From the NCBI RefSeq assembly GCF_003334815.1, contig NZ_QOWO01000011.1: a DNA stretch of 64,000 bases; one strand, given 5' to 3'. The DNA comes from Escherichia coli (GTDB lineage Bacteria; Pseudomonadota; Gammaproteobacteria; Enterobacterales; Enterobacteriaceae). The notes below the pieces were generated by a model that saw nothing but the letters and a program-made list of their open reading frames with translations, searched no databases and was not told the DNA's origin. Shown in pieces: positions 29,048 through 30,183 of this stretch. A program made the translations under genes and the position numbers. Within the stretch, counting starts at the first letter, position 1, and the number at the start of each line of letters is the position of its first letter.

Positions 29048-30183
29048 ATGAAGACGTTTCCTCTGCAAAGCCTGACGATTATTGAGGCGCAGCAAAAGCA
29101 GTTTGCGCTGGTGGATAGCATTTGTCGCCATTTCCCCGGCAGCGAGTTTCTTACTGGCGGTGATTTAGGCTTAACGCCAGGACTGAATCAACCGCGCGTT
29201 ACCCAGCGTGTGGAACAGGTGCTGGCTGATGCATTTCACGCACAGGCTGCGGCGCTGGTGCAGGGCGCGGGGACTGGCGCGATTCGCGCCGGGCTGGCGG
29301 CTTTGCTCAAACCGGGGCAGCGTCTTCTGGTGCATGACGCGCCTGTTTACCCGACGACACGGGTTATTATTGAGCAGATGGGGCTGACGCGCCTGTTTAC
29401 CCGACGACACGGGTTATTATTGAGCAGATGGGGCTGACGCTTATTACTGTTGATTTCAATGACCTGTCGGCACTGAAGCAGGTCGTCGACGAGCAACAAC
29501 CGGATGCGGCGCTGGTGCAGCATACGCGCCAGCAGCCGCAGGACAGCTACGTGCTGGCAGATGTGCTGGCAACGTTGCGCGCGGCAGGTGTTCCAGCGTT
29601 AACCGATGACAACTATGCGGTGATGAAGGTGGCTCGAATCGGCTGTGAATGCGGCGCGAATGTCTCGACATTTTCCTGCTTCAAGCTATTTGGGCCAGAG
29701 GGTGTTGGTGCAGTGGTCGGCGATGCTGATGTTATCAACCGTATTCGCGCCACGCTTTACTCCGGCGGTAGCCAGATCCAGGGCGCACAGGCGCTGGAAG
29801 TATTGCGTGGTCTGGTGTTTGCGCCAGTGATGCACGCGGTGCAGGCAGGGGTATCTGAACGGTTGCTGGCTTTGCTTAACGGTGGTGCGGTGCCGGAAGT
29901 GAAAAGCGCGGTGATTGCTAATGCGCAGTCGAAGGTGTTGATTGTCGAGTTTCATCAGCCGATTGCCGCCAGAGTGCTGGAAGAGGCGCAAAAGCGCGGT
30001 GCCTTGCCTTACCCGGTGGGTGCAGAGTCGAAATATGAAATCCCGCCGCTCTTTTATCGCCTTTCCGGAACGTTTCGCCAGGCGAATCCACAATCAGAAC
30101 ATTGTGCGATTCGCATTAACCCGAATCGCAGCGGTGAAGAGACGGTGCTGCGGATTTTGCGTGAGAGTATTGCCAGTATTTAA
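29048..30183 (+). pseudogene. yhfS: SelA-like PLP-dependent enzyme gene yhfS, disrupted by a 50-bp tandem duplication that frameshifts after codon 118 or so. Removing one copy restores a 361-aa ORF.
   Basis: Two abutting track ORFs (29048-29437 and 29428-30183) share context. Bases 29341-29390 and 29391-29440 are identical. Confidence 0.85.
29336..29440. repeat. Perfect 50-bp direct tandem duplication (2.1 copies) bounded by a 5-bp GACGC microhomology.
   Basis: GCCTGTTTACCCGACGACACGGGTTATTATTGAGCAGATGGGGCTGACGC occurs twice in tandem; GACGC is present at the left flank, the junction and the right end. Confidence 0.95.

Follow-up and report, generated by a model that had tools for sequence, protein, structure and literature searches.

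The last gene of an Escherichia coli operon, yhfS, is interrupted by a short sequence present twice in tandem in the 64,000-nucleotide stretch of DNA analysed here (the window), which raised the question of whether this repeat is a genuine mutation or a product of sequence assembly, and, if genuine, whether it is an ordinary loss of the gene or a reversible switch. An original prediction, made from the sequence alone, had described two identical 50-bp copies; reading of the sequence, direct string comparison and Tandem Repeats Finder all confirmed them. Positions 29341-29390 and 29391-29440 consist of the same 50 nt (GCCTGTTTACCCGACGACACGGGTTATTATTGAGCAGATGGGGCTGACGC), and Tandem Repeats Finder reported an array at 29335-29440 with a period of 50, 2.1 copies, 100% matches, no indels and a score of 212. 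It was the sole substantial tandem repeat within the 64-kb window, where the number of perfect 50-nt tandem repeats expected by chance in random sequence is approximately 64,000 x 4^-50.

The copies had been described as flanked by a 5-bp microhomology, GACGC. As the period-50 identity begins at 29335, the microhomology is instead the 6-bp TGACGC, which occurs three times at intervals of 50 nt (Table 1). The duplication thus has the layout arm-core-arm-core-arm, with cores of 44 nt arranged head-to-tail and identical to each other, and the sequence cannot tell which core copy is the newer. The chance probability of a junction ambiguity of at least 6 bp was 0.0013.

Table 1. Positions in the window of the parts of the duplication, the yhfS reading frames and the upstream genes
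Feature	Position	Strand	Basis or remark
Microhomology arm 1 (TGACGC), native; yhfS nt 288-293	29335-29340	+	Onset of period-50 identity
Core copy 1 (44 nt), native	29341-29384	+	Sequence, Tandem Repeats Finder, string comparison
Microhomology arm 2 (TGACGC)	29385-29390	+	Novel junction at 29390/29391
Core copy 2 (44 nt)	29391-29434	+	Sequence, Tandem Repeats Finder, string comparison
Microhomology arm 3 (TGACGC)	29435-29440	+	TGA (29435-29437) terminates the shifted frame prematurely
yhfS N-terminal fragment ORF, 129 aa (114 native and 15 out-of-frame residues)	29048-29437	+	ORF call
yhfS C-terminal fragment ORF, residues 111-361, 251 aa	29428-30183	+	ORF call
Whole yhfS, pseudogene through a 50-nt insertion	29048-30183	+	Repaired nucleotide sequence identical to MG1655 yhfS
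Upstream operon genes yhfZ, yhfY, yhfX, yhfW, php, yhfU and yhfT, intact	22724-29036	+	No internal stops; annotation of homologous regions

The removal of one 50-nt unit in silico restored a single ORF of 1086 nt encoding 361 aa. With both units present, yhfS is read as two ORFs of 129 and 251 aa, and both the ORF coordinates and the in-silico removal agreed with what had been predicted, so that the overall description of a microhomology-flanked tandem duplication frameshifting yhfS held in its anatomy and its ORFs. The 129-aa ORF ends in EQMGLTRLFTRRHGLLLSRWG directly before its stop codon; it retains the Gly-rich loop (GAGTGA) without the PLP lysine. The 251-aa fragment contains Asp170/171, the PLP-binding Lys196 and the YhfS-like_C domain.

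When the translation with one copy removed was aligned to known proteins, as the prediction had proposed, it was 100% identical over residues 1-361 to PDB 4J8L, a crystallised protein of E. coli entitled 'Uncharacterized protein YhfS'. The Pfam search, in which matches were counted at E <= 0.01, detected YhfS-like_C at residues 255-354 (7.5e-44), along with weaker matches of Aminotran_1_2, Cys_Met_Meta_PP and Aminotran_5 within residues 52-239. The best NCBIfam models, methionine gamma-lyase and O-succinylhomoserine sulfhydrylase, all scored far below their cut-offs. No SelA family model matched YhfS in Pfam at this threshold or in NCBIfam, and the label 'SelA-like' given to the gene by the prediction therefore found no support, those four families being the only ones matched in Pfam. 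YhfS is a fold-type-I PLP enzyme nearest to the gamma family of Cys/Met metabolism. The alignment to the O-succinylhomoserine sulfhydrylase 3NDN placed the lysine of the S-x-x-K motif at K196 and the conserved Asp in 'LTDDNY' (residues 169-174), and the Gly-rich GAGTGA segment (residues 72-77), which has a role in binding the PLP phosphate, aligned with the SGMAA segment of the Cys/Met family.

Because the break follows residue 114, the N-terminal fragment keeps the Gly-rich loop, and both the Asp and the lysine belong to the C-terminal one. As the catalytic parts are split in this way between two fragments, the broken YhfS would almost certainly be inactive. The ATG of the 251-aa ORF at 29428 overlaps the stop codon of the 129-aa ORF within ATGGGGCTGA (29428-29437), and termination-reinitiation at this overlapping ATG could yield the 251-aa fragment. 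A functional split enzyme might accordingly be imagined, in which translation terminates at the TGA in the third arm, reinitiates at the ATG and gives two fragments that assemble into active YhfS. Apart from the overlap of start and stop, a weak Shine-Dalgarno-like GAG element, which precedes the ATG by 5 nt, is compatible with such an arrangement, as is the fact that the 251-aa ORF is called by gene callers. The break is, however, located inside the PLP-binding large domain (Pfam Aminotran_1_2, residues 52-232), and the 15-residue out-of-frame tail as well as four duplicated residues would lie at the interface of the fragments. To our knowledge, there is no precedent for a fold-type-I PLP domain reassembled from fragments cut at such a point, and we regard a working split enzyme as extremely improbable.

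The neighbourhood corresponds to the K-12-type yhfZYXW-php-yhfUTS operon, which is convergent with frlR and frlDCBA. The seven genes upstream of yhfS are all open, in line with the view of the prediction that yhfS is the last gene of an operon that otherwise looks intact. No polar effect of the duplication is expected, because yhfS is last in the operon and faces the convergent frlR. A literature search found no report on the function of yhfS or of the yhf operon.

The duplication was then compared with other E. coli genomes, a check that the prediction had suggested. Megablast searches of 5,426 complete E. coli genomes with queries of 500 nt, 80 nt and 20 kb gave only matches in which a single copy was aligned in two pieces. 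A 40-mer centred on the junction, which has at most 26 contiguous bases in common with a single-copy genome and hence falls under the megablast word of 28 bases, gave no match in the same 5,426 genomes. The exact 35-mer for the junction (GCAGATGGGGCTGACGCGCCTGTTTACCCGACGAC) was likewise absent from a collection of species-representative genomes and from metagenome contigs. The single-copy form was present in 5,063 complete E. coli genomes. Furthermore, the 66-nt single-copy substrate including both TGACGC arms was 100% identical in 3,169 complete genomes, at no more than one place per genome, and the duplication was found in none of these 3,169, giving an upper 95% bound of approximately 0.1%. 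The exact single-copy 56-mer was also present in 11 of the 12 other loci compared. At the protein level, the exact 129-aa product corresponded to one record among 153 billion gene positions, CAM9201593.1, located on a single contig (CBDBYT010000010.1, 111,120 bp) of the draft assembly GCA_965212685.1. This locus was 100% identical to positions 24048-34437 of the window. The search for the product listed two samples with this contig, but the look-up of the cluster returned one accession on one contig, and no second independent assembly with the 129-aa product was found. These results demonstrated that the extra 50 bp is specific to the strain.

After removal of one copy, the window aligned without gaps to strain 52F4, with 8 SNPs in 49,950 nt, and to MG1655, with 13 SNPs in 40,450 nt. 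The duplication is thus the only indel in approximately 50 kb relative to these close relatives, and it is derived, because the repaired window aligns gaplessly to both strains and the repaired yhfS is that of MG1655. The direction of the change is duplication rather than loss of an ancestral repeat, as seen in the 5,063 single-copy genomes and in the identity of the single-copy product to 4J8L. The prediction had named a very recent event among the readings implied by the undegraded copies. The recency itself stood, given the absence of the duplication from all other genomes, but the argument from identity was weak, because substitutions build up very slowly in 100 nt and identical copies consequently say little on age. 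Recency is better argued from the absence elsewhere, combined with the fact that tandem duplications are known to be unstable.

The occurrence of the duplication in only one draft assembly is also what would be seen if it had been created by assembly or by a later step, through a 50-nt contig overlap joined untrimmed or a repeat introduced by a gap filler or polisher, the true yhfS being single-copy and intact. The round length of the unit equals k-1 for a de Bruijn assembler run at k=51, in which untrimmed overlaps can produce duplications. Moreover, artefactual repeats in yhfS do occur in other assemblies. In one of them (L007), yhfS nt 266-320 (55 nt) are found on both sides of 100 Ns (2781-2990), and another (L009) is broken at the same base, yhfS nt 266, again with 100 Ns (2836-2935). 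The repeat in L007 is an untrimmed contig overlap at k=55, and both sequences are metagenome scaffolds from the same pipeline, so that they provide a useful negative control for the look of an artefactual repeat at yhfS. They resemble the window in the repetition of a part of yhfS whose length is similar to that of a k-mer. They differ from it in the 100 Ns between the copies and in the lack of any microhomology logic, whereas the junction in the window is seamless and lies within the microhomology. Unlike these two scaffolds, the window contains no Ns at all and hence no run of Ns at the site. The 6-bp microhomology is not predicted by an untrimmed overlap, and the assembly is otherwise free of indels over approximately 50 kb. 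In addition, if all reads were single-copy, a de Bruijn graph made from them would have no k-mer crossing the junction at any k > 6, and the junction must therefore have originated in the reads or when sequences were joined at a later stage. The SNPs private to the window lie outside Dam/Dcm motifs and homopolymers. An artefactual origin was thus judged improbable. A noisy long-read consensus as the common source of the SNPs and the duplication was rejected separately, on the grounds that no other indels were present and that the SNPs were outside GATC, CCWGG and homopolymers.

We consider it highly probable that the repeat is a real, strain-private, microhomology-mediated tandem duplication (MTD) that constitutes a null allele of yhfS. 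A slippage mechanism can be inferred from its anatomy. The ancestral single-copy yhfS has two TGACGC hexamers at a start-to-start distance of 50 nt. The nascent strand, in which the second hexamer had just been copied, would have unpaired and re-annealed on the first by backward slippage or template switching, and the 44-nt core and one arm would then have been copied again to give arm-core-arm-core-arm. The extra 50 nt shift the frame by +2, resulting in 15 wrong codons and termination at the TGA in the third arm. DNA secondary structure was rejected as a promoter of this slippage, as the folding energies were no better than those of shuffled sequences; no favouring structure was found on either strand of the 56-nt and 106-nt segments, with z-scores of -1.1 to +0.4 relative to the shuffles. 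Direct repeats of 6 nt or longer lying no more than 100 nt apart form 27 pairs in the repaired yhfS, among them the TGACGC pair, and nothing accounts for the use of this pair out of 27 comparable ones. A mutational hotspot at the arms, considered in view of truncated YhfS proteins ending near codons 105-130, was also rejected, as the 90%-identity cluster gathers fragments of similar length.

Slipped-strand mispairing between short direct repeats is a source of spontaneous duplications and deletions in E. coli, for example in lacI. The yhfS duplication agrees with such classical events in having its endpoints in short direct repeats and in being precise, with no untemplated bases; it is an allele of a natural isolate and not a selected laboratory mutant, but there is no difference in kind. 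MTDs were defined in Schizosaccharomyces pombe (Dan et al., PNAS 2021, PMC8639346), where duplications of 55, 68 and 92 bp with arms of 5-8 bp frameshift ssp1 and revert at approximately 1e-4, and where long GC-rich arms are approximately 1,000 times more prone to MTD than short AT-rich arms (PMC8639346). The case in the window corresponds to those of S. pombe and other microbes in the conversion of a short-armed single-copy segment to arm-core-arm-core-arm with a frameshift of the gene, and its 50-nt unit and GC-rich 6-bp arm are in the range of the described sizes (55, 68 and 92 nt, with arms of 5-8 bp). It differs from the S. pombe MTDs in its occurrence in a bacterium, in which such events are reported to be less frequent and to recur less consistently at the same sites. 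A survey across microbes (Wei et al., bioRxiv 2026, 10.64898/2026.02.28.708716) listed approximately 13,000 loci in E. coli genomes under the term 'variable tandem duplication', and about half of the microbial variable duplications had arms longer than 3 bp, compared with 1.6% by chance; bacterial de novo MTD sites were mostly unshared between replicates (10.64898/2026.02.28.708716). Being found in one assembly only, the yhfS duplication would be a 'variable TD' locus in the terms of that preprint (10.64898/2026.02.28.708716). The duplications of topA-mutator E. coli, which are 2-19 bp long and independent of pre-existing repeats (PMC6954433), are similarly de novo, head-to-tail and gene-inactivating. 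This type was rejected for the present duplication, which is 50 bp long and bounded by a 6-bp repeat. The yhfS duplication is accordingly an ordinary instance of a well-known, described and common class of mutation. It offers a clean textbook example of an MTD in a natural E. coli genome and has little import beyond annotation, where yhfS in GCA_965212685.1 should be entered as one pseudogene and not as two genes.

Loss of yhfS was found repeatedly in other E. coli. The exact 251-aa C-terminal ORF was called in 199 index blocks. Different lesions lay behind it. A single nucleotide was missing from G runs at nt 218, 225 or 270, or at nt 289 within the left arm, and in one case codon 72 had become a stop (Q72*, C214T). 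Together with multiple small indels in L013, these independent null alleles were present in L004, L006, L008, L010, L011, L012 and L013. The reduction of a G4 run to G3 at nt 333-336 (product P0015) occurred in at least 211 contigs on several clearly different allelic backgrounds, reflecting either recurrent homopolymer slippage or spread by recombination. In this allele, carried by L014-L018 and corresponding to window positions 29380-29383 and 29430-29433, ATGGGGCTGA is changed to ATGGGCTGA and YhfS is truncated at residue 112. The homopolymer alleles share with the duplication a premature stop, often at the same TGA, together with the downstream 251-aa ORF and an origin in replication slippage. 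They are 1-nt changes in runs of G3-G4, and unlike the 50-nt duplication, which only one assembly carries, at least one of them is widespread. Most of the other -1 frameshift alleles, those with an N-terminal fragment of 112 aa, terminate at the equivalent of the TGA at 29435-29437. We also observed a split php in L010 and L011 and a split yhfT in L013; these three may be error-prone assemblies or cases of whole-operon decay. The pattern of lesions fits the decay of a dispensable gene, and the duplication is a further indication that yhfS can be dispensed with and is frequently lost, which may also hold for the yhfZYXW-php-yhfUTS operon as a whole. Given the recurrent loss of yhfS in E. coli through unrelated lesions, the duplication allele is most probably of recent origin and has little or no effect on fitness.

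The 56-nt direct homology could in principle allow precise reversion, with one of the copies being lost, and the prediction had mentioned a phase-variable event among its readings. A selected on/off switch would imply that the duplication silences yhfS under some condition and often reverts by loss of a copy. The 56 nt of perfect direct homology would indeed be a good substrate for precise deletion, and S. pombe MTDs of similar size revert in approximately 1 of 10,000 cells, a frequency some 100-fold higher than that of the forward event (PMC8639346). Recurrent switching should nevertheless leave both states in the population, and because only the single-copy state was seen in the 3,169 genomes with an identical substrate, the switch is disfavoured and the phase-variable reading was not borne out. 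The sites of de novo MTDs in E. coli are, moreover, mostly unshared between replicates (~10% shared), and MTDs were detected in E. coli approximately one-twentieth as often as in S. pombe (PMC8639346). The gene itself encodes an uncharacterised metabolic enzyme without a known selectable phenotype, and the mixed lesion types of the other yhfS null alleles are a better fit to decay than to regulation. The duplication shares with contingency loci of phase variation a change in repeat copy number that toggles the frame and is reversible in principle. In contrast to those loci, it consists of two 50-nt copies only, with no prior tract, and yhfS is no surface or host-interaction gene; in the complete genomes, wild-type yhfS contained no multi-copy simple-sequence tract, the segment being present in one copy at no more than one place per genome. 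A selected switch was thus considered very unlikely. There is equally little likelihood that the allele was fixed as an advantageous 'temporary knockout' of the last enzyme of the yhfZYXW-php-yhfUTS pathway, precisely reversible at high frequency. If it were so, a selected reversible yhfS knockout would parallel, in a natural bacterial strain, the reversible MTD alleles known for ssp1 in fission yeast and would be a useful natural case for the study of MTD reversibility in bacteria, but nothing here points that way.

Apart from the duplication in yhfS, several variations were observed in the surrounding region. Seven positions of the window (16126, 17701, 26589, 28596, 35751, 40634 and 49193) differ from 52F4 as well as from MG1655. 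Transversions account for five of them, and A:T>C:G changes for three. Both of the private SNPs in the yhf operon are nonsynonymous (php Q38K and yhfT F289V) and absent from every other locus compared, and those in aroK and nirB are synonymous. The private SNPs could be the mark of oxidation or of a mutator, reflect a relaxation of selection on the operon, or belong to natural variation that has not been sampled. The crp promoter region, in the intergenic region between crp and yhfA, contains SNPs at 49172 and 49193, which precede the start codon of crp by 174 and 195 nt; the latter, T>G, is private to the window.

The DNA next to yhfS also varies in gene content. In L007 (3863-5650) and L014 (3692-5339), yhfL (DUF4223) and cysG directly follow yhfS, and the whole frlABCDR fructoselysine cluster is absent; frlABCDR beside yhfS is thus a presence/absence polymorphism. 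In the E. coli C-type genomes (H70-H76; WG5, C122 and NCTC122), the query comprising positions 20001-40000 aligned in three pieces over 21,090 bases as against 19,950, and therefore WG5, C122 and NCTC122 contain approximately 1.1 kb of extra DNA somewhere in the region.
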